Part shown: in pieces, positions 10,100 through 27,762 of the stretch
Position numbering within the stretch: the stretch's first letter is position 1
Layout: every line of letters begins with the position of its first letter
Assembly (NCBI GenBank): GCA_965261025.1
Contig: OZ253438.1
Coordinates: 1,290,001-1,322,000, forward strand
Reading direction: 5' to 3'
Source of the DNA: Chlamydiales bacterium
Lineage (GTDB): Bacteria; Chlamydiota; Chlamydiia; Chlamydiales; SM23-39
DNA: 32,000 nucleotides
Translations under genes and position numbers: made by a program
The notes under the pieces: model-generated
What the model was told of the DNA's origin: nothing
Databases searched by the model: none
Seen by the model: only the letters and a program-made list of their open reading frames with translations

Positions 10100-10106
10100 G
10101 GGTTTT

Positions 10107-10130
10107 CTTTTCTAAAAGAGAAGGCTTTTT
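10107..10130 (+). terminator. Candidate intrinsic terminator after rplQ
   Basis: cttttct (10107-10113) pairs with agagaag (10117-10123) across an aaa loop, with one G-U pair. A T-run follows at 10126-10130. The stem is weak and A/U-rich. Confidence 0.35.
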
Positions 10131-10221
10131 CCTGTCTTTTTTGCCTTCCTTTGTTTTTCACCATTCGGCTTTACTTTGATCTAAAATTTCTTTATGATGA
10201 GGAGAGTTTGGGAGGCTGGTT

Positions 10222-11254: not shown

Positions 11255-11962
11255 GTGAATTTTACAAGAGAACCTATCATAGAAACGGTTATTACGCCAA
11301 GAGAAGGCTACCGTTTGATAATTCGAGCAACTAAGGTTGCTCAAGCGGAGGAATATTCCGTAGAAGCAGTTGAAATAGTCTCTTTTGGAGGCTCCATTTT
11401 TTATCGTTCTCTGGAAAGACCAGGGGCTTTTTTATTGCCTGTGGGAGACTACGAGGTAGTAGAAACCAGAGAAACCAAAGTGGCTTTAAAGAGCGCCCAT
11501 TTAGAGCGCTCCATCAAGATCACAGGTTCTAAAGAAGGAAGTGGGACTTCAGAGGCAAAACAGCAAACCAATGAAAATAAAAAGCATCACAGAAAAAAGT
11601 CGAGAAGAAAGAAAACAAGTCAGGAAATTCCGAGAAACAGAGAAGATGGAGTAGAAGAGTCTAATAAAGAAAACGCACAACCCGCTGTTTTCTCCAGGCT
11701 TTTCCCTCCTCCTCCTACTCTTATAAAAGAGACTTTAAATAGGAGCAAAGAAGCAGAAATTGTAGAGGCGAATCTTTTACCTGAGAAGGTAGAGGAAGAG
11801 GTTTCTCCGTTGCCAGAAGTATCTCATCAGGAAGTAGAAAAGGAGAAGCAGGTACCTCTTTCTGAGCCAGAGGTATTACCAGAGCCCATTTATAATCCTG
11901 ATTCTTTGGAGGAAAGTCCTGAAAAAGAAGAAAAAAATTTTTCTTCAGAAAATCAAGAATAA
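11255..11962 (+). CDS. Hypothetical protein: folded N-terminal ~100 aa, Lys/Arg-rich centre, acidic Pro/Glu-rich tail. Possible GrgA (CT504)-like transcription factor.
   Basis: GTG start in the ORF track. Central KKHHRKKSRRKK patch and C-terminal EEEVSPLPEVSHQEVEKEKQVPLSEPEVLPEP. It lies immediately downstream of gap, where I recall CT504 lying in C. trachomatis. The GrgA link rests on synteny and architecture only. Confidence 0.6.
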   Translation: MNFTREPIIETVITPREGYRLIIRATKVAQAEEYSVEAVEIVSFGGSIFYRSLERPGAFLLPVGDYEVVETRETKVALKSAHLERSIKITGSKEGSGTSEAKQQTNENKKHHRKKSRRKKTSQEIPRNREDGVEESNKENAQPAVFSRLFPPPPTLIKETLNRSKEAEIVEANLLPEKVEEEVSPLPEVSHQEVEKEKQVPLSEPEVLPEPIYNPDSLEESPEKEEKNFSSENQE

Positions 11963-12018: not shown

Positions 12019-12102
12019 ACACAAATTCTTGAGATAGGAACCTTTCCTTGCTTTTTACCTTTAGAAAAGAGTAAATTGTTGCCATTGCCCACTGTTTATT
12101 TT

Positions 12103-12185
12103 GCTCGAGTGGTGGAATGGTAGACACAAGGGACTTAAAATCCCTTGGGAGAAATCCCGTGCGGGTTCGAGTCCCGCCTCGAGCA
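12103..12185 (+). tRNA. tRNA-Leu (anticodon UAA), CCA not encoded
   Basis: Hand-folded cloverleaf: acceptor GCTCGAG/CTCGAGC; D stem GTG/CAC; anticodon stem AGGGA/TCCCT with loop CTTAAAA (anticodon TAA at 12136-12138); long variable arm GGGA/TCCC; T arm GCGGG-TTCGAGT-CCCGC; discriminator A. Confidence 0.93.
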
Positions 12186-12266
12186 ATCTTGTAAATCAAA
12201 AGTTAGGCAGATTCTAGGATTTATCCTGTGAGAAAGCCATTTTCAATTGTTATCAGGTAGGTAGTA

Positions 12267-13070
12267 ATGAATCATCAAAAACAATGGGTAAAGAGTGTAT
12301 TTGATGCAGCGGCCCCTAAGTATGGAAAAGAAGGAGCGGCCTTTTTTCCGTACTTCGGGAGAAGTTTGGTGGATTTTTCTCAAATTCCGCCAGGGGTTAC
12401 TGCGCTTGATGTAGCAACGGGAAAGGGGGCTGTATTGCTACCTTTAGCGAATCAGGTGGGAGCCCAAGGTTCAGTAGTGGGCATTGATATTAGTCCCAAT
12501 ATGGTTAATATGACGCAACAGCTCTTAAAGAAAAACGGAGTAGATTGGGCACATGTCAGAGAAATGGATGCGGAACAATTGAATTTTCAGGATAATACTT
12601 TTGATTTCGTCTTTTGTGGTTTTGCTCTTTTTTTCTTTCCTTTTCTTGATGAGGCGCTCAAAGAATTTAGGAGAGTGCTTAAGCCAAATGGCCGTCTTGT
12701 TGTTTCAGTTTGGGGTAAAAGACCTAAGTTGAATGCGTGGGTGATTGAAGAAGTTAAGAAGCTGGGGTTTAATAAGAGTTTGGCTACAACGGCTTTACAC
12801 AGCCCTGATGCTTTGAATAGCATTTTACTGCAATCTGGTTTTTGTAATCTCGAGTTCAAAGAGGAGTTTAAAACCTTTTGGCATCAATCCGGCTTAGCTT
12901 GGTGGGAAAGTTTATGGAGTCATGGGACGCGCTCTTTGTTAGAGAGTCTGTCGCAATTGGAGTTAGAGATTCTTCAAAAGCAGGCCATACGTAAAGCAGA
13001 AAAGAGCTGTTCCCTTAACGGAGTTCCCGAAGAAATGCATGCCATCTTTGGAATGGGAACAAAGCAGTAA
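12267..13070 (+). CDS. Class I SAM-dependent methyltransferase (UbiE/type-11-like)
   Basis: Motif I ALDVATGKGAVLLPLA, post-I VVGIDISPNM, FDFVFCGFALFFFP and LKPNGRLVVSVW. Confidence 0.8.
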   Translation: MNHQKQWVKSVFDAAAPKYGKEGAAFFPYFGRSLVDFSQIPPGVTALDVATGKGAVLLPLANQVGAQGSVVGIDISPNMVNMTQQLLKKNGVDWAHVREMDAEQLNFQDNTFDFVFCGFALFFFPFLDEALKEFRRVLKPNGRLVVSVWGKRPKLNAWVIEEVKKLGFNKSLATTALHSPDALNSILLQSGFCNLEFKEEFKTFWHQSGLAWWESLWSHGTRSLLESLSQLELEILQKQAIRKAEKSCSLNGVPEEMHAIFGMGTKQ

Positions 13071-13379
13071 GAAATACGATTATTGCTGCTGGGGTTCTGT
13101 TTTCGATACAGTAGATTAAATGCTAGCGGAGGGTCTTTTGGTAATTTCGTGTAGTAGAAATCGTTTTCAGGATTATGTGTCATGCCAAATTTTTCCCTAA
13201 GCTCCTTCTGAATCCTTTCAGCTAAAAAGTAGCCTTCTTTCTTTGAGAGAGCCGAAGGGAAACAGTAACGGAAGAATTTGCATTCGTCTTTGCAAATAGA
13301 GGTAGGTCCTCATCTTTTAGGTAAAATCCGATTGATCCAGGGATAATGCTTTATTCATACGGATTATTCTGACAAAGCC

Positions 13380-13519
13380 AGAGATCCATCTAAATATTAG
13401 TTTATTTTTTAATAAAGAGATTGTCTATTAAACTGTATTTATTTTATTAGAAGGAAAAGCTGTATTATTAAAAATATATATAATGAGAGTTTTTTGTAAT
13501 TTGGGAAATCTCAAAAACA
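13380..13519 (+). promoter_or_regulatory. A+T-rich upstream region of the giant autotransporter gene with candidate sigma70-type elements
   Basis: Perfect tataat at 13479-13484, 36 nt before the ATG. A ttgtct ... tattag pair lies further upstream. No strong SD precedes 13520. The promoter assignment is a guess. Confidence 0.25.
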
Positions 13520-13603
13520 ATGCCTTTACAATCCAAAAGCTATTTAAGATTTGGTTGTGTTTTTTTAGGGCTATTTTATGTTTTTTCCTTTCCTGTTCAT
13601 GCA
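13520..13603 (+). other. Sec signal peptide of the autotransporter (aa 1-28)
   Basis: Basic n-region (K6, R10), hydrophobic core FGCVFLGLFYVFSF, and a VHA|T cleavage-like site. Confidence 0.7.
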
Positions 13604-16600
13604 ACAGATTTTACCGTAACTAATACGAATGATTCTGGAGCAGGTTCTCTCAGAAATGCCATAGATTCTGCCAATAGTGCTTCTGGTGGGTCTCATCAGG
13701 TGTTATTTCAAGTGGATCTTTCTGGAACCATTACGCTTCAAAGCTCTCTTCCCACTATTACAACTAAGATAATAACTATAGCAGGACCTTCTTCGGGATC
13801 TATCATTATTGATGGGGATAGTACCCATCAGGGATTTTTTATAGAAGCAGATGTGGTTGTAGCAATTAGCAATTTAAGTTTACAAAACATGAGGGCCAAG
13901 GGAGGAAATGGAGGGCCTGGGAGAAGTGGTGGAGGAGGAGCTTTGGGAGCGGGGGGAGCTATTTTCGTAGAAAGTGGAGCCGATGTTTCTATTTCATCGG
14001 TTGCTTTTGGAAGTTGCAGTGCAGTCGGAGGAGATGGTGGAACAGCAAATACAGGAATTCGTTTTAGTGGAGGAGGAGGAGGAGGAGGAATGAGAAATGC
14101 CCCAGGAGGAGATGTAACACAATCTTTAGTAAGCAACATTGGAGGAGGGGGTGGTGGTGGACTAGAGGGTAGTGGAGGAAATGCCCAAAGTGGGGGATCA
14201 GGAGGAGGAGGAAAAAGCAATAGAGGGGGAGATTGTCTTTCTTTAGCATTGATTACGGACGTTGGAGGAGGAGGGGGTGGCGGTTCAGGAGAAAATCCAG
14301 GAGAAACTGGGGATATAATTCCTGGAGGAAACGGGGGAGATGGTTTTGAATCTTCCTCTGGTGGTCAAGGAGGAACAACAGCAGGACAGGATGGTGCTTT
14401 AGGTACGAGTGGAGGAGGGGGTGGTGGCGGTGCATCAAACATTGTAGGGGCTAGCGGCTCTGGAGGTTCTGGCTCAACTCCTGGGGGAGGAGGGGGAGGA
14501 GCCGGAACAACGTTATTATCAACAGGCTCGACAACCTCTGGTACTGGAGGAGGAGGAGGTAAGTATGGAGGAGGTGGAGGAGGGGGCGGAGCTCTTACAA
14601 GTATAAGCGCTTCTGTTACAGCGGGTAGTGGAGGAAATGGAGGATATGGAAGTGGAGGGGGCGGAGGCGGTGGAGCTCTTGTGGCTGCGGGTATTGGTAG
14701 TGCAACAGGAGGTTCTGGAGGAAATAGTACATTTGGAGGAGGCGGAGGAGGGGGAGGTATTGGATTTGGAGTTACCAGTGGAGGAAATGGAGGATTTGGA
14801 GGAGGAGGGGGTGGAAGTGGAGGTTCAACAGGTTTGGGAGGAACTGCAGGCTTTGGAGGAGGCAATGGAGGAAATAGTTCGAATAGAGGGGGAGGAGCTG
14901 GTGCAGGACTAGGAGGTGCTATTTTTATTGAGGGTAGTGGCTTAGTTACCTTTTCAGGAAGTGGGACGTTGTTTTCTTCCAATTCTACTACGGCAGGAAC
15001 AGGAAGTGATGGTGGAGCAGATGGGACTGCAAGTGGAGATGACTTATTTATTCAATCAGGGGCAGAGATTGTTTTTGCTGTTACCGATACCGTAACAATA
15101 GGCAGTGATATTGCAAGTAATCAATCATCAGGAGGAAGTTTTTCCAAATCAAACACGGGTACACTTAACTTAACAGGAAATAATACCTTTACAGGGAATA
15201 TTTCTGTATCAGGGGGGACTTTATCTATAATTAGTGATAATGCGTTAGGTGTTTCTACCAATGCGGTATCGATAAGTTCAGGAGCAGTACTAAATCTTTC
15301 TTCTGATATGAGCTCTTCTAGAGCTTTGACATTGGGATCTGGGGGAGGAGTTTTAAATATATCTCCTTCATTTACGACTACATGGTCTGGGAATATTTCC
15401 GAATCTGCTGTGGCAGGATTCACTAAAGATGGAACAGGAATTCTCACTTTATCAGGCACAAATACTTATAGTGGAGGAACCAATATCAATGCAGGAACAT
15501 TACGTATTGCAAATGATAATTTACTTGGGAGTGTAGGAGGAGGAGTTACTTTTGGAGGAGGGACTTTACATACTACAGCTACCCTTTCTACTGGAAGAAG
15601 TATTGCCCTATCAGGAAATGGCACTTTTGAGGTAGACACCTCTACGAGTCTAACCTGTAGTGGAGCTATTAGTGGTAGTGGGCTGTTAACAAAGTTGGGA
15701 AGTGGCAATCTCATCTTGACAGGCTCTAACAGCTATACAGGGGGAAATGTTGTTTCAGCAGGGGTTTTACAGGGAGATACAACTAATATCTTAGGAGATA
15801 TAGCCAATGCAGGATCAGTGGTATTTGATCAGGGAAGCACTGGAACGTTTTCAGGGGATATTTCCGGAGCGGGCTCTGTTACCAAACAAGGAGCAGGGAC
15901 ACTGATCCTTTCAGGAAGTAATAGCTATAGCGGGGGAACTACGATTTCAGCGGGAGCTTTACAAGGAGATACAACAAGCTTAACCGGAAATATTACTAAT
16001 AGTGGTTCCTTAGTGTTTGATCAGGAATCTCTCGGAACCTTTTCAGGAGATATTTCGGGGACAGGTTCTGTAAGAAAACAAGGAACGGGAATGTTAATTT
16101 TTTCAGGAAGCAATAGCTACAGTGGGGGATTTACCATTTCGGAAGGAGCTTTACAAGGAGATACAACAAGCTTAACCGGGAATATTACTACTAGTGGTTC
16201 CTTAGTGTTTGATCAAGGAAGTACTGGAACGTTCTCGGGGGATATTTCCGGGACAGGTTCTCTTACTAAGCAGGGAACAGGCGTTCTCATTTTATCAGGC
16301 ACAAATAGCTATAGCGGAGGAACCAATATCAATGCAGGAACATTATGTATTGCAAACGATAGTTTACTAGGGGATATAGGAGGAGGAATTACTTTTGGAG
16401 GCGGAAATTTAAATACTACAGCTACCCTTTCTACTGGAAGAAGTATTGCCTTATCAGGAAATGGCACTTTTGAGGTAGATACTTCTACGAGTCTAACCTG
16501 TAGTGGAGCTATTAGTGGTAGTGGACTGTTAACAAAGTTGGGAAGTGGGAATCTTATCTTGACAGGCTCTAACAGCTATACAGGGGGAAATGTTGTTTCA

Positions 16601-19600
16601 GCAGGGGTTTTACAAGGAGACACAGGTAGCATTTTAGGAAATATTGCAAATACAGGATCGGTAATCTTTAATCAAGGAACTACTGGAGCATTTTCGGGGG
16701 ATATTTCCGGAACAGGCTCCATTACGAAACAAGGAGCAGGGACACTGATCCTTTCAGGAAGTAATAGCTATAGCGGGGGAACTACGATTTCAGCGGGAGC
16801 CCTCCAAGGAGATACAACAAGCTTAACCGGGAATATTACTAATAGTAGTTCCTTAGTATTTGATCAGGAATCTCTCGGAACCTTTTCAGGAGATATTTCC
16901 GGAACGGGCTCCGTTACCAAACAAGGAGCAGGGACACTAATCCTTTCAGGAAGTAATAGCTATAGCGGGGGAACTACGATTTCGGTAGGGGCTTTACAAG
17001 GAAATACAACAAGCTTGACAGGAGATATAACCAATAATAGCTCTTTGGTTTTTAATCAAATTAGTACTGGGACTTTTTTGGGGGATATTTCCGGGACGGG
17101 TTCGGTTACTAAGCGAGGAACAGGCGTTCTCATTTTATCAGGCACAAATACTTATAGTGGAGGAACCAATATCAATGCAGGAACATTACGTATTGCAAAC
17201 GATAGTTTACTTGGGAGTGGAGAGGGGGGAGTTACTTTTGGAGGCGGAAATTTAAATACTACAGACACATTTTCTACTGCGAGAAATATTGCTTTATCAG
17301 GAAATGGGGCTTTTGAAGTAGATGCTTCTACAAGTCTAACCTGTAGTGGAGATATTGGTGGTAGTGGGTCGTTAACAAAACTGGGAAGCGGGAATCTTAT
17401 CTTGACAGGCTCTAACAGTTATACCGGGGGAAATATTGTTTCTGCAGGAATTTTACAGGGAGATGCAGGTAGTATTTCGGGGAATATAGCTAATGCAGGA
17501 TCTATTGTATTCAATCAAGAATCTCTCGGAACCTTTTCGGGAGATATTTCAGGGATAGGCTCTGTTACGAAACAAGGGGCGGGGACACTAATCCTTTCAG
17601 GAAGTAATAGCTACAGCGCGGGAACCACAATTTCAGCAGGGACTTTGCAAGGAGATACAACGAGCTTGACAGGAGATATAACCGATAATGCTTCTTTGGT
17701 TTTTACACAAAGTAGTACTGGGACTTTTTTGGGGGATATTTCCGGGACAGGCTCTGTTACCAAACAAGGAGCAGGGACATTAATCCTTTCAGGAAGTAAT
17801 AGCTATAGCGCGGGAACTACGATTTCAGCAGGAGCTCTCCAGGGAAATACAGCAAGCTTAGTAGGAAATATTACCAATAATAGCTCTTTAATATTTGATC
17901 AAGGAACTACCGGAACCTTTTCGGGGGATATTTCCGGGACAGGTTCCGTTACAAAGCAGGGAACAGGCGTTCTCATTTTATCAGGCACAAATACTTATAG
18001 TGGAGGAACCAATATCAATGCGGGAGTGTTGCGTATTGCAAATGATAATTTACTGGGGGATATAGGAGGAGGAGTTACTTTTGGAGGAGGGACTTTACAT
18101 ACTACAGCTACCCTTTCTACTGGAAGAAGTATTGCCTTATCAGGAAATGGCACTTTTGAGGTAAATACCTCTACGAGTTTAACCTGTAGTGGAGCTATTA
18201 GTGGTAGTGGACTGTTAACAAAACTGGGAAGTGGCAATCTCATCTTGACAGGCTCTAACAGCTATACGGGAGGAAATGTTGTTTCAGCAGGAGTTTTGCA
18301 AGGAGATACAAATAGTATCTTAGGAGATATAGCCAATGCAGGATCGGTGGTATTTGATCAGGGAAGCAGTGGGACTTTCTCGGGAGATATTTCCGGAACG
18401 GGTTCCGTTACCAAGCAAGGAGCAGGGACATTAATCCTTTCAGGAAGTAATAGCTATAGCGCGGGAACTACGATTTCAGCGGGGGCTTTGCAAGGAAATG
18501 CAAACAGTATAGTGGGAAATATCACTAACAATAGCTCTTTAATATTTGATCAGGGAACTACCGGAACCTTTTCAGGAAATATCTCCGGGACAGGCTCTGT
18601 CACCAAGCAAGGAGTGGGAACCTTAACTTTTTCAGGAAGTAATAGTTATAGCGGAGGAACTACCATTTCAGGGGGAGCCCTGCAAGGGAATACAGGTACC
18701 ATAGCAGGAAATATTACCAACAATAGCTCTTTAATATTTGATCAGGGAAGCAATGGGACGTTTTCAGGGGATATTTCCGGAACGGGTTCCGTTACCAAGC
18801 AAGGAGCAGGGACATTAATCCTTTCAGGAAGTAATAGCTATAGCGGAGGAACTACCATTTCAGGGGGAGCCCTACAAGGGAATACAGGTACCATAGCGGG
18901 AAATATTACCAACAATAGCTCTTTAATATTTGATCAGGGAACTACCGGAACGTTTTCAGGGGATATTTCCGGGACAGGCTCTGTTACGAAACAAGGAGCA
19001 GGAAGACTTATTTTAGGAGGCAGCAGCAGCTACACCGGGGGGACATCCCTAAATGCTGGAATTTTACAGGTATTCAGTGGGAGCGCTCTAGGAAATAGCA
19101 TAGGAGAAATTGATTTTGCAGGGGGATCTTTGAACACGACTGGAACTTTTACCTTACCACATAATGTTTCGTTATCTTCTGAGGGGATATTTGAAGTGGA
19201 CACTTCGACAACTTTAACCTGTAGCGGTGTTATCAGTGGTAATGGATCTTTGACAAAGCTTGGAAATGGCAGCTTGGTTCTGACTGGATCTAATACTTAT
19301 TTGGGTGGAGCTTCTGTTTCACAAGGGGTTTTGGAAGGTAATACGACAAGTCTTTTCGGTAATACTGTGAATAATGCCGTGCTACGTTTTAACCAGAATT
19401 TTTCAGGATCTTATGGAGGGATTGTTACAGGAACAGGGACGTTAGTTAAAACAGGTTCCGGAAAAAGTATTTTTTCAGGAAATCTTACGCAGAATTTGTT
19501 TTCTGTAGAAGCAGGGACAATGACTGTGAATGGGCAAGTTACAGGTCCAGTTCAAATAGCCTCTTCCGCAGTTTTAGAAGGAAACGGTAGAATAGTAGGT

Positions 19601-21055
19601 AACGTAAACAATAACGGAATCATAGCAGCAGGGAACTCCACTACTTTGGATATACAAGGAGATCTTTCTATGGAAACCGGAAGCTCTTTGAATGTAGTAG
19701 CAGCACCTGATAGTCCCACTCTTCTTGCAGTTACAGGAGAAACATCCATAGGTGATGATACTTCTTTAGTCATATCCTTAGCAGATGCAGATTATAACGC
19801 AGATACTTCTGTTCCCATTTTACAATCAGATGGGGGAATTATTGGTAAATTTAGTGAAGAACTCAATAATATGCCCCTTTTGGGTTTATCGGTTTTATAT
19901 TCACCTACATCTATGGCTTTAGCTTTTTCTCCTGAGGATTTTTCCTCCGTAGCAGAAGGAGAAGATGCAGTAGTATTGGCCAATTATCTAGATGAAATTC
20001 CTTCTAGTGAAATAAATAGTGACTTGCAGCGAGTTATTAATCAGTTATATTCTCTGCCAAGCAGTGCAGAACTGTCTTCTGCTTTGGATCAATTGCAGCC
20101 AGTACAGTTTAGTGGTTTTTCTCTGGCCCAAGAGGAAATTTCTGTAGCTTTATCCCAAAATATTTTTCGTCGAATAGAAGAATTAGTAAACCAACGGGCA
20201 TGTGGACATTTTTGTTCAGGTAAAAGATTTCTTTGGGAAAATTTATTTTATGTGGGCTCTAAACAGAAGAAAGTCTCTGAACACGTTCCTTTCACCACAG
20301 ATACAGAAGGGGTAATTCTTGGAGGAAATGGAACTATTTCGGAGGAGATCATCTTAGGACTTGGCTCTGCTTTTTCTAATACGAATATCGCTTGGAAAGA
20401 AGATAGAGGTAAAGGACAAACTTTGACCGGATATTTATTTATTTATGGGACAGGGTCTTTTTCTCCTGGCTTTATTCGGTGGAATTTTATGGGTGAGTTG
20501 AGTCATTTTCAGGCAAGGAGACGTATTCAGTTTGCTACTATTCACCGTCAAGCAAATCATTCTAATAACGGTCATGGATTTTCTGGATATATAGACTTTG
20601 GCATCTTGGGAAGAAAACACAGAGCTTTTGCAGTGAACCCTTTTGCTAGTATCAATTCTGCCTGGTTTTGGGAAAATTCATACCAAGAAGAGGAGGCAGA
20701 AAGTATAAGTTTATCGGTTCGCAAAAGGAGATTAAATCTTTGGAGATTTGAGGTGGGTTTAGAGCTCTCCGGCTGTTTTGAAACAAAAAAGGCTACTATT
20801 TCTCCGAACTGTAAAGTATTTTGTGCTAAAGAAGTAAGAACTCTTGGAAAAACCTTTACGGCTAGATTTACTTCCGTAGAGCCCTCTTTTAGGGTAACTG
20901 GATTTAATCCCAACAGAGATTATCTCGGTTTTGAGACATATCTAGACGCGTGTTTATTAGATAAATTATTATCGATTCGTTTAGGAGTAAATGGTCAGTT
21001 TGCTAAAAAATACCAACAATATGGTGGAGAACTAAACATAGGACATCATTTTTAA
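13520..21055 (+). CDS. Giant autotransporter adhesin (2511 aa): signal peptide, beta-helix cap, Gly-rich region, PATR-type repeat array, C-terminal beta-barrel
   Basis: Signal peptide MPLQSKSYLRFGCVFLGLFYVFSFPVHA|TD. N-terminal VTNTNDSGAGSLRNAI cap motif. GGAIFV/GGAIFI motifs plus FSSN. Dozens of G.G.L.LSG.N.Y.GGT.I..G.L repeats. ALDQLQP linker. The C-terminal ~290 aa have alternating beta-strand character and end in ...NIGHHF (terminal Phe). Confidence 0.9.
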   Translation: MPLQSKSYLRFGCVFLGLFYVFSFPVHATDFTVTNTNDSGAGSLRNAIDSANSASGGSHQVLFQVDLSGTITLQSSLPTITTKIITIAGPSSGSIIIDGDSTHQGFFIEADVVVAISNLSLQNMRAKGGNGGPGRSGGGGALGAGGAIFVESGADVSISSVAFGSCSAVGGDGGTANTGIRFSGGGGGGGMRNAPGGDVTQSLVSNIGGGGGGGLEGSGGNAQSGGSGGGGKSNRGGDCLSLALITDVGGGGGGGSGENPGETGDIIPGGNGGDGFESSSGGQGGTTAGQDGALGTSGGGGGGGASNIVGASGSGGSGSTPGGGGGGAGTTLLSTGSTTSGTGGGGGKYGGGGGGGGALTSISASVTAGSGGNGGYGSGGGGGGGALVAAGIGSATGGSGGNSTFGGGGGGGGIGFGVTSGGNGGFGGGGGGSGGSTGLGGTAGFGGGNGGNSSNRGGGAGAGLGGAIFIEGSGLVTFSGSGTLFSSNSTTAGTGSDGGADGTASGDDLFIQSGAEIVFAVTDTVTIGSDIASNQSSGGSFSKSNTGTLNLTGNNTFTGNISVSGGTLSIISDNALGVSTNAVSISSGAVLNLSSDMSSSRALTLGSGGGVLNISPSFTTTWSGNISESAVAGFTKDGTGILTLSGTNTYSGGTNINAGTLRIANDNLLGSVGGGVTFGGGTLHTTATLSTGRSIALSGNGTFEVDTSTSLTCSGAISGSGLLTKLGSGNLILTGSNSYTGGNVVSAGVLQGDTTNILGDIANAGSVVFDQGSTGTFSGDISGAGSVTKQGAGTLILSGSNSYSGGTTISAGALQGDTTSLTGNITNSGSLVFDQESLGTFSGDISGTGSVRKQGTGMLIFSGSNSYSGGFTISEGALQGDTTSLTGNITTSGSLVFDQGSTGTFSGDISGTGSLTKQGTGVLILSGTNSYSGGTNINAGTLCIANDSLLGDIGGGITFGGGNLNTTATLSTGRSIALSGNGTFEVDTSTSLTCSGAISGSGLLTKLGSGNLILTGSNSYTGGNVVSAGVLQGDTGSILGNIANTGSVIFNQGTTGAFSGDISGTGSITKQGAGTLILSGSNSYSGGTTISAGALQGDTTSLTGNITNSSSLVFDQESLGTFSGDISGTGSVTKQGAGTLILSGSNSYSGGTTISVGALQGNTTSLTGDITNNSSLVFNQISTGTFLGDISGTGSVTKRGTGVLILSGTNTYSGGTNINAGTLRIANDSLLGSGEGGVTFGGGNLNTTDTFSTARNIALSGNGAFEVDASTSLTCSGDIGGSGSLTKLGSGNLILTGSNSYTGGNIVSAGILQGDAGSISGNIANAGSIVFNQESLGTFSGDISGIGSVTKQGAGTLILSGSNSYSAGTTISAGTLQGDTTSLTGDITDNASLVFTQSSTGTFLGDISGTGSVTKQGAGTLILSGSNSYSAGTTISAGALQGNTASLVGNITNNSSLIFDQGTTGTFSGDISGTGSVTKQGTGVLILSGTNTYSGGTNINAGVLRIANDNLLGDIGGGVTFGGGTLHTTATLSTGRSIALSGNGTFEVNTSTSLTCSGAISGSGLLTKLGSGNLILTGSNSYTGGNVVSAGVLQGDTNSILGDIANAGSVVFDQGSSGTFSGDISGTGSVTKQGAGTLILSGSNSYSAGTTISAGALQGNANSIVGNITNNSSLIFDQGTTGTFSGNISGTGSVTKQGVGTLTFSGSNSYSGGTTISGGALQGNTGTIAGNITNNSSLIFDQGSNGTFSGDISGTGSVTKQGAGTLILSGSNSYSGGTTISGGALQGNTGTIAGNITNNSSLIFDQGTTGTFSGDISGTGSVTKQGAGRLILGGSSSYTGGTSLNAGILQVFSGSALGNSIGEIDFAGGSLNTTGTFTLPHNVSLSSEGIFEVDTSTTLTCSGVISGNGSLTKLGNGSLVLTGSNTYLGGASVSQGVLEGNTTSLFGNTVNNAVLRFNQNFSGSYGGIVTGTGTLVKTGSGKSIFSGNLTQNLFSVEAGTMTVNGQVTGPVQIASSAVLEGNGRIVGNVNNNGIIAAGNSTTLDIQGDLSMETGSSLNVVAAPDSPTLLAVTGETSIGDDTSLVISLADADYNADTSVPILQSDGGIIGKFSEELNNMPLLGLSVLYSPTSMALAFSPEDFSSVAEGEDAVVLANYLDEIPSSEINSDLQRVINQLYSLPSSAELSSALDQLQPVQFSGFSLAQEEISVALSQNIFRRIEELVNQRACGHFCSGKRFLWENLFYVGSKQKKVSEHVPFTTDTEGVILGGNGTISEEIILGLGSAFSNTNIAWKEDRGKGQTLTGYLFIYGTGSFSPGFIRWNFMGELSHFQARRRIQFATIHRQANHSNNGHGFSGYIDFGILGRKHRAFAVNPFASINSAWFWENSYQEEEAESISLSVRKRRLNLWRFEVGLELSGCFETKKATISPNCKVFCAKEVRTLGKTFTARFTSVEPSFRVTGFNPNRDYLGFETYLDACLLDKLLSIRLGVNGQFAKKYQQYGGELNIGHHF
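13900..14920 (+). repeat. Low-complexity GGN-codon (poly-Gly/PGRS-like) region within the autotransporter
   Basis: About 340 codons dominated by Gly runs (GGGGGGG, GGNGG, GGSGG) separated by short variable segments. Includes (GGA)7 at 14069-14089. Bounded by the two GGAIF(V/I) motifs. Boundaries are approximate. Confidence 0.9.
15140..19550 (+). repeat. Array of ~32-aa autotransporter-associated beta-strand (PATR-like) repeats organised as 192-nt (64-aa) double units
   Basis: 192-nt spacing measured twice: 15872 vs 16064 (GSVTKQG / GSVRKQG) and 18651 vs 18843 (gcggaggaac). Consensus is G(T/A)G.LILSGSNSYSGGTTISAGALQG......G.I.N..SL.F.Q...GTFSGDISG. Outer boundaries are approximate. Confidence 0.85.
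15431..18802 (+). repeat. Four tandem in-frame copies of an 843-nt (281-aa) super-repeat
   Basis: The string ggaggaaccaatatcaatgc recurs at 15473, 16316, 17159 and 18002, exactly 843 nt apart. ggaacag unit starts lie at 15431 and 16274. Confidence 0.93.
20000..21052 (+). other. Linker plus autotransporter beta-barrel translocator domain (approximate)
   Basis: SAELSSALDQLQPVQFSGFSLAQEE helix/linker motif, then amphipathic strand-like segments. C-terminal ...GGELNIGHHF ends in an aromatic residue, typical of BAM substrates. Confidence 0.75.
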
Positions 21056-21059
21056 GATT

Positions 21060-22328
21060 TTAAAAAGCTTTTTTAGTCGTTTGAAGTATGTACAGACCCA
21101 GAAAAAGAAATAAAGCGGAAATAGGATAAAATGTATAGATACTGATAGCTCCTGTAAGGGCTCCTAAAATAGGAACTAAGAAAAGCCCTAAGGAGAACAT
21201 GGATTGCGCTATACCCATGGCTTTTCCTTGTACATTAGCAGCAGAGGAAATGGAGATTAAATTAAACGTGGAGCTTAAAGAAACAGCTCCCACAATGGCT
21301 GAGATGGCATAGGTAAAAATAAAAGAGGAAAAATTAGGCATGAAAGCCGCAGCCGTAAGTAATAGGGCGGTTAACAAGTAGGAGAGCTTTGCAATGGACC
21401 AAGTATTCATAAGCCTTAATAAAATAGGATTGACTAAAGAGCCTCCTAAAGCCCATCCAGTTCCTTGAATCATTAGTCCTAAAGTGCTGGTTTTTTGAGA
21501 AATCCCAAAATGTTTTATTACATAGGCTCCATACCAGGTAATAGAGTACCCCCAACCAAGAGTCCATAGCAAAAGCAGGAAAAAGAAGCGTCTCGTATCC
21601 CGCATACGAAGGGCTTCAATAATGTTATGTATTCCCTTGGAAAGATCAATTTTTGTTTTCCCCTCTGCCCTTTGGTAGGTTTCTGAAAAAAAGACTGCTA
21701 AACTAACAAGACTTAACGTAGTAAGAATCCCCGCCACGTAAAAAGGTAAGGAAGGATTGAACCACTTAGAAAGAGAAGGGTCAGAGAGAAATCCTCCTAG
21801 TATTAGAGCAATAGGAAAGCTGACTCCCCATACCACAGTCAAAATGCCGTAATTTCTAGCTCTTTGTTTTTCATTAGGGCTCAAATCAGCAATAGAGGCG
21901 TTACAAAGCCCTTGATTGCCTGAAAACAGACCCGTCAGAAATCGAGCAACGAAAAGCAGGAAAATGCTTTTAACCATCAAAACAAGCCCTGTGAGGAAGT
22001 AGGCTCCGATTACTAAGATAATAGAAACAAAAAAAATCTTTTTTCTCCCATAGCGGTCTGCTAACTCCCCCATGATGGGTGCGCCTATCAATTGCGCTAT
22101 GGGAAAGGCCGCATAGAGAGTGCCTATAGCAAGAAGTTTTGTTGTCAAACTAGGATCTTGTCGTAAAAATCCATAATCTGGATTAAGCAATAAAGAGGGA
22201 AAAAGAACAAAGACCATGGCATAACCACAATTGTCAACAGCTGCAATAAAATAGACAGTAAACAAAGATTTTATTCGGGAGACAGATTTCATTTCTCTTG
22301 TATAGCAAAGGAATGAATAAAAAGTCAA
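21060..22328 (-). CDS. MFS transporter (DHA1/drug:H+ antiporter-like)
   Basis: Twelve-TM-like hydrophobicity. MFS motif A GELADRYGRKK between TM2 and TM3. The ORF-track start at 22328 is TTG; the ATG at 22292 (MKSVSRIKS...) is the more likely start. Confidence 0.85.
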   Translation of the reverse strand: MTFYSFLCYTREMKSVSRIKSLFTVYFIAAVDNCGYAMVFVLFPSLLLNPDYGFLRQDPSLTTKLLAIGTLYAAFPIAQLIGAPIMGELADRYGRKKIFFVSIILVIGAYFLTGLVLMVKSIFLLFVARFLTGLFSGNQGLCNASIADLSPNEKQRARNYGILTVVWGVSFPIALILGGFLSDPSLSKWFNPSLPFYVAGILTTLSLVSLAVFFSETYQRAEGKTKIDLSKGIHNIIEALRMRDTRRFFFLLLLWTLGWGYSITWYGAYVIKHFGISQKTSTLGLMIQGTGWALGGSLVNPILLRLMNTWSIAKLSYLLTALLLTAAAFMPNFSSFIFTYAISAIVGAVSLSSTFNLISISSAANVQGKAMGIAQSMFSLGLFLVPILGALTGAISIYTFYPISALFLFLGLYILQTTKKAF

Positions 22329-22341
22329 AAAAGCGTTTTTT

Positions 22342-23757
22342 TTAACAGATAGTCTTATTATCTCGAACTGCTTTCTTAAAAGAGTTTCCTAAGAAAAGAG
22401 CCACAATGAACCATAGAACCAAAAGAGGGGCACATAAAATAAGACTTAAGGTTAAATAATAAGATCTACCTACAAGCATACCAAAAGTGTTTTGTAGAGG
22501 ACTTAAAGACATATTGAAGATAGAGCCTGCCTGCTTGGAAGATCGGGATCCAAAAGTTTCTATCCAGGCTTGTGCTTTAAATTTTACGTCTGGAGTAGTC
22601 GGGATGTAGAGCTGCTTTAAGGCAGGGCCGTTTAAAGCATAGTTGATTGCCTTAGACCCAACCATCAAACCAAAAAGGAAAGAAAGAGAATCCAAGGTCA
22701 CAAAACCAAAAAGCGCAAAACCTACAATAATAGGCATTAAGGATAAAGCCGTTTTTATACCTAGAAAACGGGTAATATTACTAATCCCTAAAAGCAGACA
22801 CGACAAAGATATGACATTTACAATAGACCCGTAAATGCTTAGGTAATTGCTCAAGGCAACTCCTGAATAGACCGATCCAGCAGCTAGTTTAAAATTAAAA
22901 TCGAATATAGTAACTGCCACTTCATAAATAAAATTGGAAGCAAAAATACACAAAAGATATCGATTCTTTACAAGAAGTTTTAATCCTTCCAAAAAACCGG
23001 GTTCTTGTTTTTTTTCTACTGTTTTTTCATTCCCTCCATGGAAGGCCTGAAGAAGATCTTTAGGAGTTTTTTTTAAAAAGTAGCGGATCATAGGGATAAT
23101 ACAAAGAATGAAAAGGCCCAGGAGAAATATAGAAAGAGAGTCGGTAAGTAGTTTCAATCTGTGAGGGAGCCCCCCTATTCCATAAGGGAAAAGAATGCCT
23201 CCTATTTGTCCAATAGCTACCACCAAGGGAAATCCTCTTTTTGCATGGGAGGGTTCTGTAGTATCCGCTGCAAAAGCCCAAAATAAAGCTACCATCAAAG
23301 AACCAAAGCTTTCCACAAAGAGATACCAAAAATAGCCAATCGCTTGCGTACTCAAAGATCCTAAAAAAGATCCTCTAGCAAGCTGTTCAGAAGAAGCTTG
23401 GAGGAAAAACATTAAAAGACTCATCAGTAAAATGGCAATGCCATAAAAACAAGGTAAGATAATAAGCATCTTCTCTCTGGAAGTTTTTTCTATGAGTTTA
23501 GTGTAAAACATAACCAGAGGTAGAAGAGCTATAACGGAAATAGTTTTAGCAAAGGGGAGTTGGTATTTACCCACGAGATGTATAAAAATAGAGTCCTTCA
23601 AAGGGCGAAGAGTCCAGTAAGCCCCTATGATCAGAGCAAAAATGAGGCCCATTCTTAGAAATTTCTTAAACTCTTCTCTCTCAAAGGTTCCAAAATTAAA
23701 ACGGCAAACCCATTGAAAAAAATCCAGAAGACCTTTTTTTTGTTTCACGAAAACCAT
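22342..23757 (-). CDS. Nucleotide transporter of the NTT/TLC (ATP:ADP antiporter, Npt) family
   Basis: Colinear with recalled chlamydial Npt1: [12 protein letters not shown] vs [53 protein letters not shown] vs [80 protein letters not shown] vs [41 protein letters not shown]. Substrate is unknown. Confidence 0.85.
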   Translation of the reverse strand: [471 protein letters not shown]

Positions 23758-23865: not shown

Positions 23866-25047
23866 TCATTTTTGAATCTTTTTAGGGTTTTTCTTAAGTC
23901 TTTCTAGTTTTTTTTGTAGTTTAGACTCTCTCTTTTCTGTCTTGACCCGGATCTCTCCTGGAGGAAGAGTAGGGGTAAATTTTTGTAAAGAGGCATATTT
24001 TTTTAAGACTTTGTAACAATAAAGGCAGCAGTGTTCAGGCAAAAGACTCTCCTGAGCAAGCTTCCTTCCCTGCATAGCAATTTTTTTTGCTTCTGCATCA
24101 TTTTGTTTGCACCATTCGATTTTTTCTATGAGATCACTTAGATCCTCCTCTATAGGGACATAGTGAACCCAGGGCTTTAGAGGATAAAAGTACCACATTT
24201 TATTTTTAGATTTCTGCTTTAAAACAGTACAATTAGACAAAAGCCTCCACTGAAGACCTGGGTATGTGGCAGTATGCCCGTCTACATTCACTTGATACTT
24301 AAATCTTAAGTGTTCCCTGACAGATAAAAAGGGCTTATGAGGATCAAATCCTGTGTTACGAATAATCCTTTGCACAGAAGTTTCAAGCCAATTAGTCCCT
24401 GCATTAAGGTGATGAGGATATACGCTAGATAAATAACATAACTTTCCTCTAGGGGTTTCAAAAAATCCCCTTGGAGAGTAGTCATACTGGTAGCCTTGAA
24501 GGCCTCCCCGCCATATAGCAGTAGGAATTTTGCTTTCCCAAGGAAGCTCTTTACTGGTCTGCTCCACTAAGATAGAGTTGTAAGTCCAGTCATAGGCTTC
24601 GGAGCAGTGCTCCGGATCTGTCCGAGTAGGGTCAAAGTTCCAATCTGCAAAATAGATGACATGGGTAAAATCTTCGTGTTTCGTGCTGGCTAATACGGGT
24701 CCATCTACAGTAGGGGGATTTCTTTCTCCTCTGGGGCCTCGAACAAAACCATCTTCCACCAAATAAAGAAACTCCACATCGGGTATCGTGTATTTTCGGC
24801 AAAGAACTGACAAAAGGTTATGAGTTTTTCCTGAGGGTCCATAGACTTTATTATCAATGATCTTAAAGCGAACATAACGGTGCCATTGGGGAGAGGCTTT
24901 CTCTATCATCTCCAGAGTAATCCCAGAAGAAAAGGGGGAGAAATCTTTTTCGATTGCCTCGTCCATCCAATCGTTAGGGCCGGCCCAGGACAAAGAGCAG
25001 AAAAAAAGAAAGAAAGAAAAAAAACAGCGCTTCATGAAAAACCTCAA
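23866..25047 (-). CDS. GT90/CAP10-domain glycosyltransferase, POGLUT1 (Rumi)-like protein O-glucosyltransferase homologue with an N-terminal signal peptide
   Basis: Colinear with recalled human POGLUT1 (392 aa): [17 protein letters not shown] vs [29 protein letters not shown] vs [34 protein letters not shown] vs [39 protein letters not shown] vs VKANDDVAQEIAERGSQ. The ORF-track start is TTG at 25047 (TTGA overlap with the upstream stop). The ATG at 25035 has gagg 6 nt upstream and gives [19 protein letters not shown]. Confidence 0.85.
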   Translation of the reverse strand: [393 protein letters not shown]

Positions 25048-25835
25048 GAATTTAATTTGTCATATAATTTATAGAAAACAGGCTTGCCTTTTCCTCCATT
25101 TCCATGGAAGATACTCGGATAAGTATTCGTTTCTTTTAGGCGAACTTCCCCTTTTTTTACTTTTAATTCCTTGAGATCTACATCAAATAGACTGCAAAAT
25201 ATCTCGCAGGAGGTATCCAGATAAATCAGGTCTGAGTGGTTTACATAATAAGTTTGATATAGAGCTTGATCACTGTGCATGCCAGGAAGAATTTCGGAGA
25301 TAACTTCTTCTAACATAGCCTTTAAAGCGCCTGCATACCCTATGAATCCTCCTGCATTCAAATACTTAAAAGAAGTACGGGCCTTTTGAAAGTAGGGTTT
25401 TAAATGGGTTTGGGGATAGCAATTTCTTTCTGTGGAGAAGACAATAGGAGCTTTCTTTTCCAAGAATTTCTCAACAATCTTTTTCTGTCCTGCACAAAAA
25501 AAGACATCACAGGCATCCACGCAGACAACAATATCTTCGTCAGGAAGAGTCTTGATAAATTCATAAAACCAAATCGGTTTGGTAACATTTCCTCCCCAAG
25601 AAGTAGCTTCCTTTCCTATGTGGGTAAGGGAGATTCCGTGTTTTTCAGCAGAGTCAAAAAGACGAGACATGTAGGTATAAGGATCTTTACCGGGATAACA
25701 TCCTACAGTGCAGAAGTGAGCTTTTCCCTTTTTTTCTTTCCAGATATTCTTCTGTCTTATCAAGGAGGTATTATTGTGCGCAAAGAGAGAGGGGAAAAAA
25801 AACCCTAAAATAAGAACAAAACGGTACCATTTCAT
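25044..25835 (-). CDS. Lysyl hydroxylase 3 (PLOD)-type N-terminal glycosyltransferase-domain homologue, signal-anchored, with no hydroxylase domain
   Basis: Matches to the recalled LH3 GT domain: DEDIVVCVDACDVFF vs REDMIIMFVDSYDVIL (DxxD conserved); IVFSTERNCYPQ vs LLFSAESFCWPE; FKYLNAGGFIGYAG vs KRFLNSGGFIGFAT; SDQALYQTYY vs DDQLFYTRLY; YPSIFHGNGG vs LPIVVHGNG. The ATG at 25835 forms an ATGA overlap with the upstream stop, with ggggga SD-like sequence upstream. The ORF track begins at TTG 25850. N-terminus MKWYRFVLILGFFFPSLFA. Confidence 0.8.
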   Translation of the reverse strand: MKWYRFVLILGFFFPSLFAHNNTSLIRQKNIWKEKKGKAHFCTVGCYPGKDPYTYMSRLFDSAEKHGISLTHIGKEATSWGGNVTKPIWFYEFIKTLPDEDIVVCVDACDVFFCAGQKKIVEKFLEKKAPIVFSTERNCYPQTHLKPYFQKARTSFKYLNAGGFIGYAGALKAMLEEVISEILPGMHSDQALYQTYYVNHSDLIYLDTSCEIFCSLFDVDLKELKVKKGEVRLKETNTYPSIFHGNGGKGKPVFYKLYDKLNS

Positions 25836-26680
25836 GAATCTTTCCCCCAATTTTTTCCATCTAAATGAGTCACAAAAGGCCCCTCTCCATAAGATCCGTA
25901 CAAGAAGACCCCAAACTCTTTGTATTTATTAGGGTCTTTTACACAAGCATTTCGGATGGGGTGTGCTAGCTCCCATTCCATAGCAATGGGTCTATTTCCC
26001 ACTCGAGGGAAGACAAAAGTCTCGTAGTACTTTTTAGAGGTTAGGTGTTCATGGTCAGACCAGTTATAAGAGATACAAAGAGGAATATGAGAAGGACCTT
26101 CATAAGGAATGGCTGCTACTTGCGCTGTTCCATAAGGTATATTTTTTGCGCGAGTAAAGTGAACGTATTGGATAAAGGGGTTTCTTTCCATAGAGCTCAT
26201 AACTCCTTCTAGGTCCAAAGGTTTTTCCAAAACAAAATCATGTTGATGGACAAAGATAAAAGGAGTCTTTACAAAAGAAAGAGCCTCCCTTAAAGCCCCT
26301 GTTAAGTGGCCATGCTCTTTCAAAAAAACCAGCAAAGTATTCTTAAAATAGGGGCTCTCTTCTATAAGTTTTCTGCACCCTTTCTTATACCCCTCGTAAG
26401 CCGTTTTTAAGAAAACTCCCTTTCTCATTTCTAATGAGTAGAACTTTTTAGGTGGCTCATCAAAAACAATAATCTTTGGCATACTCTCAAAGCCAGGCTG
26501 CTGATACCAACTTTTAAAGGAGGTTTCTAAAAGCTCTGTACTAGGATGGCCAGGAACGGCGCTAGTATTGGTAATAAACGTGATTCGAGAAGAAGAAGAG
26601 TCTAGAGTGCCGTAAGTTTCTACGTTAATAGAAAACCCCGTAGAGAACCCTAAAAAGAATAAAAAAAGAAAAAACTTCAT
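25832..26680 (-). CDS. Secreted/anchored protein of unknown family, possibly a GT-A-fold (GT2-like) glycosyltransferase with a non-canonical QHD in place of DxD
   Basis: Signal peptide MKFFLFLFFLGFSTGFS. The layout resembles a GT-A fold: ITFITNTSAVPGHPSTELLETSFKS (beta1/alpha1), PKIIVFDEPP, HGHLTGALREALSFVKTPFIFVHQHDFVL (equivalent to N.G...ARN.G...A.G.YI.FLD.DD). GGAG SD lies 5 nt (catt-a spacing) upstream of the ATG. Family assignment is weak. Confidence 0.4.
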   Translation of the reverse strand: MKFFLFLFFLGFSTGFSINVETYGTLDSSSSRITFITNTSAVPGHPSTELLETSFKSWYQQPGFESMPKIIVFDEPPKKFYSLEMRKGVFLKTAYEGYKKGCRKLIEESPYFKNTLLVFLKEHGHLTGALREALSFVKTPFIFVHQHDFVLEKPLDLEGVMSSMERNPFIQYVHFTRAKNIPYGTAQVAAIPYEGPSHIPLCISYNWSDHEHLTSKKYYETFVFPRVGNRPIAMEWELAHPIRNACVKDPNKYKEFGVFLYGSYGEGPFVTHLDGKNWGKDS

Positions 26681-26901
26681 AATGCTCCGAATTTTTTTTT
26701 GCAGAGGTTGTATTTCTTTTTTCCTTTTTCAGTCAATTCTTTTTTACCTGGTAAATAGGAAGTTCTTTTCAATGAATCGGATTAAAGTAATGAGGAAAAA
26801 AAGCAGAAAACCAGTAAATAACTTCGTTTTCCCTTTTTTCAAAGAGGGGGGAGTTGACTTTTTTTTCAGAAAAAGTCTTTTTAAGAAAAAAGGATAGAAA
26901 A

Positions 26902-27762
26902 ATGGAGGAAGAAACCCCTATTCGGGGAGTAGTTTATGGTATCTTTATGGCCTTGGCTTATTCCCTCATGGCAATCTTTGTAAAACTTACCAAAGACACT
27001 CCGAATCAAGTTATCGTATTTTATCGCAGTATGATAGCTCTTTTTTTTATCTCTCCTTGGCTTTATAGGAAGAAAAACGAATTAGGAGGAAGGAAAAAGT
27101 ACCTTTACTGGATAAGAAGTTTATCAGCACTTTTTGCTGTATATTGCTATTTCTATAGCCTAAAGCACCTTTCTTTGTTAAACAGTATCCTCTTAGCTAA
27201 CACCGCACCTCTTTTTGTACCTTTAGTTATTTGGCTTTGGCTAAAAAAAAGAATTGCTACAAAAAGGATTCTTTCGATTTGTATAGGATTTCTGGGGGTA
27301 GTTCTCCTTTTGCAGCCCACTTCAAAAGGATGGGGCTTAGCTACCCTTATAGGGTTGGGGACAGGCCTTTTTTCCGCTATTGCCCTTGTAGGGGTAAGGC
27401 AATTAACCAAAACAGAAAAACCTCTTTCGATATTGTTTTATTTCTTTCTCCTTTCTGCTTTTCTCTCTTTTTTCCCCTTCGTGATAGGAGGGGAGCTTTT
27501 CCCGGAGAAGGGAGAAAGGCTCTACGTCTTAGCTACTGGCCTTATGTCAATAATCTATCAGTTTTTTATTACAAAGACCTATACCTCCCTCCCTCCCTCC
27601 AAGGCAGCGGGCTTTTTGTATCTTAGCCTAGTTTTTGGAGGCTTTTTCGACTGGATTTTATGGGGTAAGTTATTCACCTACAGTACATTGCTTGGGGTTA
27701 TTTTTGTAGCTGTGGGAGGATTTTTGACTCTTTATGAAAAGCCTAAGATATTTTTCAAATAA
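26902..27762 (+). CDS. EamA/DMT-superfamily transporter (10-TM, two EamA repeats)
   Basis: MEEETPIRGVVYGIFMALAYSLMAIFVKL..., typical EamA helices and the NTAPLFVPLVIWLWLKKR mid-protein junction. The ORF track starts at TTG 26854; the ATG at 26902 is preferred. Transcribed divergently from the GT operon. Confidence 0.8.
   Translation: MEEETPIRGVVYGIFMALAYSLMAIFVKLTKDTPNQVIVFYRSMIALFFISPWLYRKKNELGGRKKYLYWIRSLSALFAVYCYFYSLKHLSLLNSILLANTAPLFVPLVIWLWLKKRIATKRILSICIGFLGVVLLLQPTSKGWGLATLIGLGTGLFSAIALVGVRQLTKTEKPLSILFYFFLLSAFLSFFPFVIGGELFPEKGERLYVLATGLMSIIYQFFITKTYTSLPPSKAAGFLYLSLVFGGFFDWILWGKLFTYSTLLGVIFVAVGGFLTLYEKPKIFFK

Follow-up and report, generated by a model that had tools for sequence, protein, structure and literature searches.

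The largest gene in a 32,000-nucleotide (nt) stretch of DNA from a Chlamydiales bacterium (contig OZ253438.1, positions 1,290,001 to 1,322,000; this whole stretch is hereafter the window, and all coordinates refer to it) probably encodes an intact, classical type Va autotransporter with a stalk of passenger-associated-transport repeats (PATR) and a likely role as a surface adhesin of this chlamydia-like organism. The open reading frame (ORF; 13520..21055, plus strand) is complete, running from an ATG start through 2511 codons to a TAA stop; the next largest ORF in the window is five times smaller. At the base composition of the window, 2511 consecutive sense codons would arise by chance with a probability of approximately 1e-79. 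A previous sequence-only reading of the same DNA had described a gene of this length, the largest of the window, that ends 4 nt from a convergent gene string, and both statements hold: the frame is uninterrupted, and its stop (21055) lies 4 nt from the stop (21060) of the gene for a major facilitator superfamily (MFS) transporter (21060-22328, minus strand). The assignment to type Va is based on matches to PF03797 and TIGR01414, a predicted 12-stranded barrel with its helix, a signal peptide recognized by inspection, and an aromatic residue at the C-terminus. The protein belongs to a known class, of which it is a divergent representative of large size, and does not constitute a new system; many unnamed proteins in public data resemble it.

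The C-terminal translocator

The predicted 12-stranded translocator barrel occupies residues 2236-2511 (20225..21052, plus strand), as identified by PF03797, AlphaFold and Foldseek, and the protein terminates in phenylalanine (...NIGHHF). When the last 512 residues (2000-2511) were scanned alone, PF03797 was matched with 97.1 bits (cut-off 26), and TIGR01414 matched the C-terminus with 36.2 bits (cut-off 16). An AlphaFold model of residues 1960-2511, built with a small alignment, had a mean predicted local distance difference test score (pLDDT) of 86 and a predicted template modeling score (pTM) of 0.70, and contained, in order, approximately seven beta-helix rungs, three short helices, a 34-residue helix and twelve long strands. 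Residues 2013-2140 (19556..19939, plus strand) represent the C-terminal, autochaperone-like end of the passenger beta-helix and are modeled as strands throughout, with pLDDT 80-95. These are followed by a helical linker at residues 2148-2227 (19961..20200, plus strand), with the three short helices and the 34-residue helix being H189-200, H208-218, H223-232 and H235-268 in model numbering. The longest of these is predicted to lie inside the barrel pore.

In a Foldseek search of this model against the PDB the top matches were all type Va translocators, namely EstA (E=4.7e-35), AaaA, NalP, Hbp, EspP, AIDA-I and BrkA, with a TM-score for NalP of 0.85 when normalized to the target. A profile of the family searched against the PDB similarly matched the passenger end of Ssp (8e7f, E=2.4e-32) and the barrels of EstA (2.7e-18) and EspP; searches of the PDB with the N- and C-terminal regions as single sequences gave no matches. 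The canonical barrel ending in phenylalanine that the sequence-only reading had proposed is thereby supported both by the 97-bit profile match and by the predicted fold.

The PATR array and the integrity of the gene

Much of the passenger consists of a PATR array (15140..19555, plus strand; residues ~541-2012), presumed to form a beta-helical stalk, that comprises 20 canonical units and one degenerate unit. PF12951 matched the full protein with E=1.3e-190 and 617 bits (cut-off 27), and TIGR02601 with 579 bits (cut-off 19.85), each in 20 stretches. The units start at residues 547, 640, 729, 793 and so on up to 1917, with the degenerate 21st at residue 1981, and have a period of 64 residues, lengthened to 89 or 93 at the joints between super-repeats. 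Each 64-residue unit is made up of a 32-residue PATR and a 32-residue spacer that is not PATR. The presence of a PATR array had been proposed from the sequence and is confirmed by the 20 matches, but the "several dozen" repeats of ~32 residues given in that reading were about twice the real number.

Comparison of the DNA and the protein with themselves revealed a higher-order organization in this region, in the form of four tandem super-repeats of 843 nt (281 residues) each (15422..18793, plus strand). The super-repeats are 81-92% identical to one another at the DNA level (86-92% relative to the first copy) and 80-87% identical at the protein level, and the 192-nt units are 62-91% identical. 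There is one cysteine per super-repeat, located in the motif SLTCSG, and a fifth copy of the motif is found in the partial repeat that follows (codons at 15656, 16499, 17342, 18185 and 19220, corresponding to C713, C994, C1275, C1556 and C1901).

A gene as repetitive as this one, in which super-repeats of 843 nt occur in four copies and units of 192 nt in thirteen, might owe its length to repeats that were collapsed or expanded during assembly, or might be a pseudogene. We consider this highly unlikely. Identity between repeat copies is no more than 62-92%, and exact internal repeats reach at most 76 nt, less than the length of a standard read, so that repeat collapse during assembly is improbable. 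In addition, all 2511 codons are open, every domain is found in the correct order, and a protein identical to this one (P0002, 100% over 2511 residues) is encoded on a 1,422,118-bp contig in public data (NCBI/ENA).

The N-terminal region

The protein begins with a putative Sec-type signal peptide (residues 1-28; 13520..13603, plus strand), which was recognized by inspection from its basic n-region, hydrophobic core and VHA-T cleavage motif; it has the sequence MPLQSKSYLRFGCVFLGLFYVFSFPVHA and is followed by TD. Residues 29-135 (13604..13924, plus strand) represent an N-terminal beta-helix cap that contains the sequence VTNTNDSGAGSLRNAI. No Pfam or NCBIfam model matched the cap. Its homologs (36-49% identity, ~90% coverage) start proteins from Planctomycetes and Methylobacterium that are labeled autotransporter in their source records, and are also found in unnamed proteins of further phyla. 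Several proteins from the clade of relatives described below (P0117, P0091, P0081 and P0004) likewise have a homologous cap at their N-terminus. As two of the cap homologs (P0232 and P0196) occur in free-living, non-chlamydial contexts, the cap is a generic beta-helix module.

Overlapping the end of the cap is a Gly-rich module (residues 131-470; 13910..14929, plus strand), of whose 340 residues 46% are glycine. It has twelve runs of at least four glycines, of which eight comprise six to eight residues, and its presence explains the local values of GC content (0.53) and GC skew (0.54). The module is flanked by two rungs that resemble those of the Pmp adhesins of Chlamydiaceae. The first (GGALGAGGAIFVESGADVSISSVAFGSCSA; 13934..14044, plus strand) has GGAIFV...FGSC at residue 145, and the second (GGAIFIEGSGLVTFSGSGTLFSSN; 14900..15019, plus strand) has GGAIFI-x14-FSSN at residue 465. 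The second rung, with its FSSN at residue 485, represents the sole canonical GGAI-x16-FxxN doublet of the protein; the Pfam Chlam_PMP model gave no match to it.

The rung preceding the Gly-rich module is also found in P0091, P0053, P0008 and P0085, and local phmmer comparisons identified the layout of a rung, a Gly-rich insert of ~200-320 residues and a second rung in these four proteins and in P0042, P0035, P0096 and P0090. A segment with at least 50 glycines per 100 residues is present at the matching position in approximately 26 of the 150 best homologs. That this layout is kept among homologs indicates that the Gly-rich module is a conserved design element, rather than random low complexity.

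A perfect in-frame (GGA)7 repeat was noted within the module at 14069-14089. It could permit in-frame variation in length. We also considered phase variation via homopolymer slippage, as occurs in some pmp genes, and rejected it: G runs reach 6 nt at most, and as no homopolymer in the gene is longer than this, the gene has no obvious frameshift switch.

Relationship to the Pmp family

The two GGAIF rungs, with the one canonical GGAI-x16-FSSN doublet, that bracket the Gly-rich module, the chlamydial host, and a barrel that is Cys-rich in the manner of chlamydial outer-membrane proteins (six cysteines in the last 330 residues, which include the barrel) might be taken to mean that the protein is a diverged Pmp. 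This seems improbable to us, as neither Chlam_PMP (PF02415) nor ChlamPMP_M (PF07548) matched the full-length protein at E<=1, and neither was matched even at E<=10 when the N-terminal, Gly-rich, post-Gly and linker segments were scanned in isolation. The FxxN motif occurs nine times in the 2511 residues (one instance being FNQN at residue 1957), relative to 7.1 expected from composition, which is chance level, whereas Pmps average 11-14 FxxN motifs (PMC2997323) in proteins of under half this size. Similarly, five of the seven GGA[ILV] motifs lie inside the Gly-rich module, where the abundance of glycine alone inflates their number. Furthermore, the GGAIF rungs are also seen in other members of the family, and the cap is also seen in Planctomycetes and Alphaproteobacteria.

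The view that the protein is not a Pmp and has only vestigial Pmp motifs, with GGAIFV and GGAIFI flanking the Gly-rich region, had been put forward in the sequence-only reading; the motifs were located as described, and the protein failed every Pmp criterion tested. Of the profiles named with that reading, PF12951, TIGR02601 and PF03797 matched and the Chlamydia PMP models did not. The PATR autotransporter nevertheless has much in common with the Pmps of Chlamydiaceae, including its type Va class, phylum, presumed beta-helical passenger, terminal phenylalanine and likely role as an adhesin (PMC2997323), as well as its one or two GGAI...FxxN-type rungs. It differs from them in having a passenger of PATR units, in the lack of a match to Chlam_PMP or ChlamPMP_M, and in its chance-level FxxN count.

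Relatives and comparable systems

To place the protein among its relatives, the last 552 residues were searched with HMMER against 1.84 billion cluster representatives, yielding 3109 matches at E<=1e-3, of which 361 were at E<=1e-30. The closest clade is 26-33% identical to the query over these C-terminal 552 residues and is characterized by conserved cysteines and an amino-acid composition of the low-GC type. All clade members have at least two cysteines in the last 330 residues (mean 5.3), comparable to the six of the protein studied here. A word-index search with the C-terminus gave a single weak match; with a family alignment as query it yielded mostly proteobacterial PATR autotransporters and did not recover the relatives of our protein. 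These proteobacterial proteins have a median of zero cysteines, a composition of the high-GC type, and 20-25% identity to the query C-terminally. One such match, P0157, is in a Burkholderiales-like context and has no bearing here.

In public metagenomic and genomic data the closest clade includes P0090 (2312 residues), P0096 (2221 residues), P0091, P0100, P0008 and P0053. In many of its members the cap is followed, as in our protein, by a Gly-rich module set between two GGAIF rungs, then by the PATR array and the barrel; none is more than 33% identical to our protein. A few members are labeled in their source records as "fibronectin-binding autotransporter adhesin" or "autotransporter-associated beta strand protein."

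Among known proteins, ShdA, MisL, Ssp and fusolisin have the same architecture of signal peptide, PF12951/TIGR02601 beta-helix (with a period of 60-100 residues), helical linker and 12-stranded PF03797 barrel ending in phenylalanine. Relative to these proteins, however, the protein described here has no protease domain, has in addition the 340-residue, 46%-Gly module and the Cys-rich barrel, and comes from a chlamydial rather than a proteobacterial host. The scores of the corresponding models lie well under the equivalog thresholds: the ShdA/MisL model NF011847 scored 406 bits relative to an equivalog cut-off of 2249, and matched the repeat region only, and the models for fusolisin (NF033865, 159 relative to 999 bits) and EprS (NF051851, 134 relative to 1700 bits) matched nothing beyond the PATR and the barrel. 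The Pfam and NCBIfam scans identified no peptidase domain.

Autotransporters described as "Pmp-like" but poor in GGA and FxxN motifs are known from chlamydia-related bacteria, each of which has one or a few of them (PMC6490308, PMC2878342). By their descriptions, Waddlia wcw_0271, Protochlamydia pc0303 and Rhabdochlamydia RhT_00552 resemble our protein in having a signal peptide, beta-helix, few GGA/FxxN motifs and a barrel (PMC2878342, PMC6490308), and differ from it in that none is reported to be of 2.5 thousand residues or to have a PATR array or Gly-rich module. In our literature searches we found no description of a PATR autotransporter from Chlamydiota.

Several observations weigh against the interpretation of the protein as an intact type Va adhesin and temper our confidence in it. 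In an hmmscan of the full 2511-residue protein PF03797 was not reported at E<=1, in contrast to the scan of the C-terminus alone. That the barrel was missed in this way shows the protein to be divergent and compositionally biased, and automated annotation of giant proteins with such a bias may overlook the barrel. When the N-terminal 616 residues (25-640) were modeled by AlphaFold without an alignment, the pLDDT was 38, falling to ~28 in the Gly-rich module, and no confident fold was obtained. Lastly, the best relative after the protein itself is 33% identical over the C-terminal 552 residues, and as no relative exceeds this value, a function cannot be transferred from a characterized ortholog.

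Proposed export, assembly and role

Based on the arrangement of its domains, we propose that the autotransporter would be exported by the Sec system via its 28-residue signal peptide, after which the beta-barrel assembly machinery (BAM) would insert the C-terminal 12-stranded barrel (residues ~2236-2511) into the outer membrane, with the terminal phenylalanine as the signal. The long linker helix would then sit in the barrel pore. The passenger would thread out, and its folding would begin at the C-terminal end and proceed outwards to give a long right-handed beta-helix composed of the 20-21 PATR-containing 64-residue units and tipped by the Gly-rich module and cap. At ~24 residues (as in the model) and 0.48 nm per rung, the 1470-residue PATR region would give a stalk of ~30 nm. 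What the analysis shows is the domain architecture and the predicted fold; export, surface display and the length of the stalk are inferred.

No catalytic domain was identified in any Pfam or NCBIfam scan of the protein. Since the passenger is without an enzyme domain, adhesion to the host cell or oligomerization at the surface would be its most likely function. Pmps act as adhesins (PMC2997323), and PATR adhesins together with Pmps provide an analogy for adhesion and self-association (PMC9289746, PMC2997323). By this analogy the protein is most likely an adhesin and a functional counterpart of the Pmps without being a Pmp itself. The suggestion in the sequence-only reading that it is a major surface adhesin would follow from family membership only.

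The chlamydial envelope is cross-linked by disulfide bonds (PMC2878342), and a Cys-rich barrel fits with this. The regular spacing of the cysteines along the stalk, together with the six in the barrel region, suggests that the protein may be joined by intermolecular disulfide bonds into the outer-membrane complex of chlamydiae.

The adhesins of chlamydiae outside Chlamydiaceae are poorly known, with only single "Pmp-like" autotransporters in the literature. Our findings indicate that at least one chlamydial lineage uses a generic PATR autotransporter design instead of Pmp repeats. With ~2.5 thousand residues, a PATR stalk and a barrel capable of forming disulfides, the protein is an obvious candidate for attachment to the host, for use in serology or for marking that lineage. 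The understanding of autotransporters as such is unchanged by this protein; leads to novelty would be only the conserved Gly-rich module and perhaps the neighboring, apparently exported glycosyltransferases of eukaryotic type, with the Cys-rich clade as a further thread of interest.

Chlamydial background and origin of the gene

The transcription factor GrgA is known as specific to Chlamydia and adjoins gapA in C. trachomatis. In the window, the ORF directly after gapA (11255-11962, 235 residues) has a GrgA N-domain (NF045799, E=7.6e-32, with positions 1-94 of the protein aligned to 1-94 of the profile) and a tail rich in Lys, Glu and Pro. Its score of 110 bits relative to the full-length cut-off of 350 indicates a divergent GrgA. 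SecY, S13, S11, RpoA, L17, GapA and GrgA are collinear, at 52-66% identity, with a locus (L001) in a metagenome-assembled genome (MAG) of a Chlamydiia bacterium, the sole chlamydial genome locus that was compared. The window also encodes a divergent transporter of the TLC/NTT type. The chlamydial background noted in the sequence-only reading is consequently upheld by the GrgA gene beside gapA, the gene order of the MAG and the TLC/NTT-like transporter, and the assignment is well supported, at approximately the distance of a family or order from the MAG. The gap between rplQ and gapA was observed to be ~2.3 kb in L001 (7695-10000) and 122 nt in the window (10100-10221).

PATR autotransporters are typical of Proteobacteria, a tRNA-Leu(TAA) gene (12102-12186) is located 1.3 kb upstream of the ORF, and the flanking methyltransferase, transporters and glycosyltransferases look accessory, all of which would be in keeping with an island beside the tRNA gene through which the gene was recently acquired, by horizontal transfer, from a proteobacterium or verrucomicrobium. 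We nonetheless judge such an acquisition to be unlikely. Outside the stretch of Gly codons, the gene matches the neighboring housekeeping genes in GC content (0.38-0.44) and in GC skew, the 3' end of the tRNA is not duplicated in the window, and the window has no integrase; on these grounds we see no sign of recent transfer. Moreover, the proteobacterial PATR proteins are the more distant ones (20-25% identity in the C-terminal region) and lack the cysteines; it is the closest clade (26-33%) that is Cys-rich and, like our protein, of the low-GC type.

The tRNA-Leu(TAA) gene is situated between grgA and a gene for a class I S-adenosylmethionine-dependent methyltransferase (12267-13070), at the start of what is possibly an accessory stretch. 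A mobile island at this tRNA was considered as a candidate in its own right and rejected, there being neither a second copy of the tRNA 3' end nor an integrase in the window. Between the methyltransferase and autotransporter genes is an AT-rich intergenic region of 449 bp (13071..13519, plus strand) that presumably bears the promoter, in which matches to a sigma-70-like consensus were weak (9/12); this region had no credible ORF, and no terminator was found in it.

Neighboring transporters and glycosyltransferases

Downstream of the autotransporter gene, profile scans identified the convergent MFS gene mentioned above as Tet-like. It is followed by a divergent TLC/NTT-like transporter (22342-23757), a GT90 glycosyltransferase (23866-25047, minus strand) related to the protein O-glucosyltransferases POGLUT2 (2e-28), POGLUT1 and Rumi of eukaryotes, a PLOD/LH3-type glycosyltransferase (25044-25850, minus strand) related to the glycosyltransferase domain of LH3, which acts on collagen, and to mimivirus R699, a 282-residue protein of no family (25832-26680, minus strand), and an EamA/DMT transporter (26854-27762). 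The N-termini of the GT90 enzyme, the LH3-type enzyme and the 282-residue protein all resemble signal peptides.

The sequence-only reading had raised the possibility that the autotransporter is a target of these genes. In this scenario the adjacent GT90 and PLOD-type enzymes, as exported proteins, would glycosylate the passenger, above all where it is rich in Gly, Ser and Thr. These enzymes resemble eukaryotic glycosyltransferases that act on proteins (POGLUT2, POGLUT1 and Rumi for the one, LH3 for the other), their signal-peptide-like N-termini would bring them into contact with the passenger outside the cytoplasm, and the NTT-like, MFS and EamA transporters adjoin them. We nevertheless find glycosylation of the passenger by these enzymes improbable. 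The genes are convergent and not co-transcribed with that of the autotransporter, the POGLUT acceptor motif C-x-S-x-[PA]-C is absent from it, and there are only two lysines in the Gly-rich module. Scans of metagenomes with a family alignment and with GT90 returned no matches and so lend no support from conserved co-occurrence, and the enzymes could equally act on lipopolysaccharide (LPS) or host proteins. The autotransporters known to be glycosylated are modified by cytoplasmic heptosyltransferases or HMW1C-type enzymes, not by GT90, which also counts against this possibility.

A bolder, joint scenario is that a lineage-specific clade of autotransporters, with Cys-rich barrel, cap, Gly-rich module and PATR, has replaced the Pmps as the main adhesin in chlamydiae other than Chlamydiaceae and that the passenger is in addition modified by the adjacent exported glycosyltransferases, which might obtain their nucleotide sugars via the NTT-like or DMT transporters or from the host compartment. 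This scenario we hold to be less probable still than glycosylation of the passenger taken by itself, and our preferred interpretation remains that of a type Va PATR autotransporter with a likely adhesin role. The exported eukaryote-like glycosyltransferases might target host proteins, LPS or surface proteins. Protein glycosyltransferases of the kind found in the lumen of the endoplasmic reticulum are in any case unusual in a chlamydial genome.

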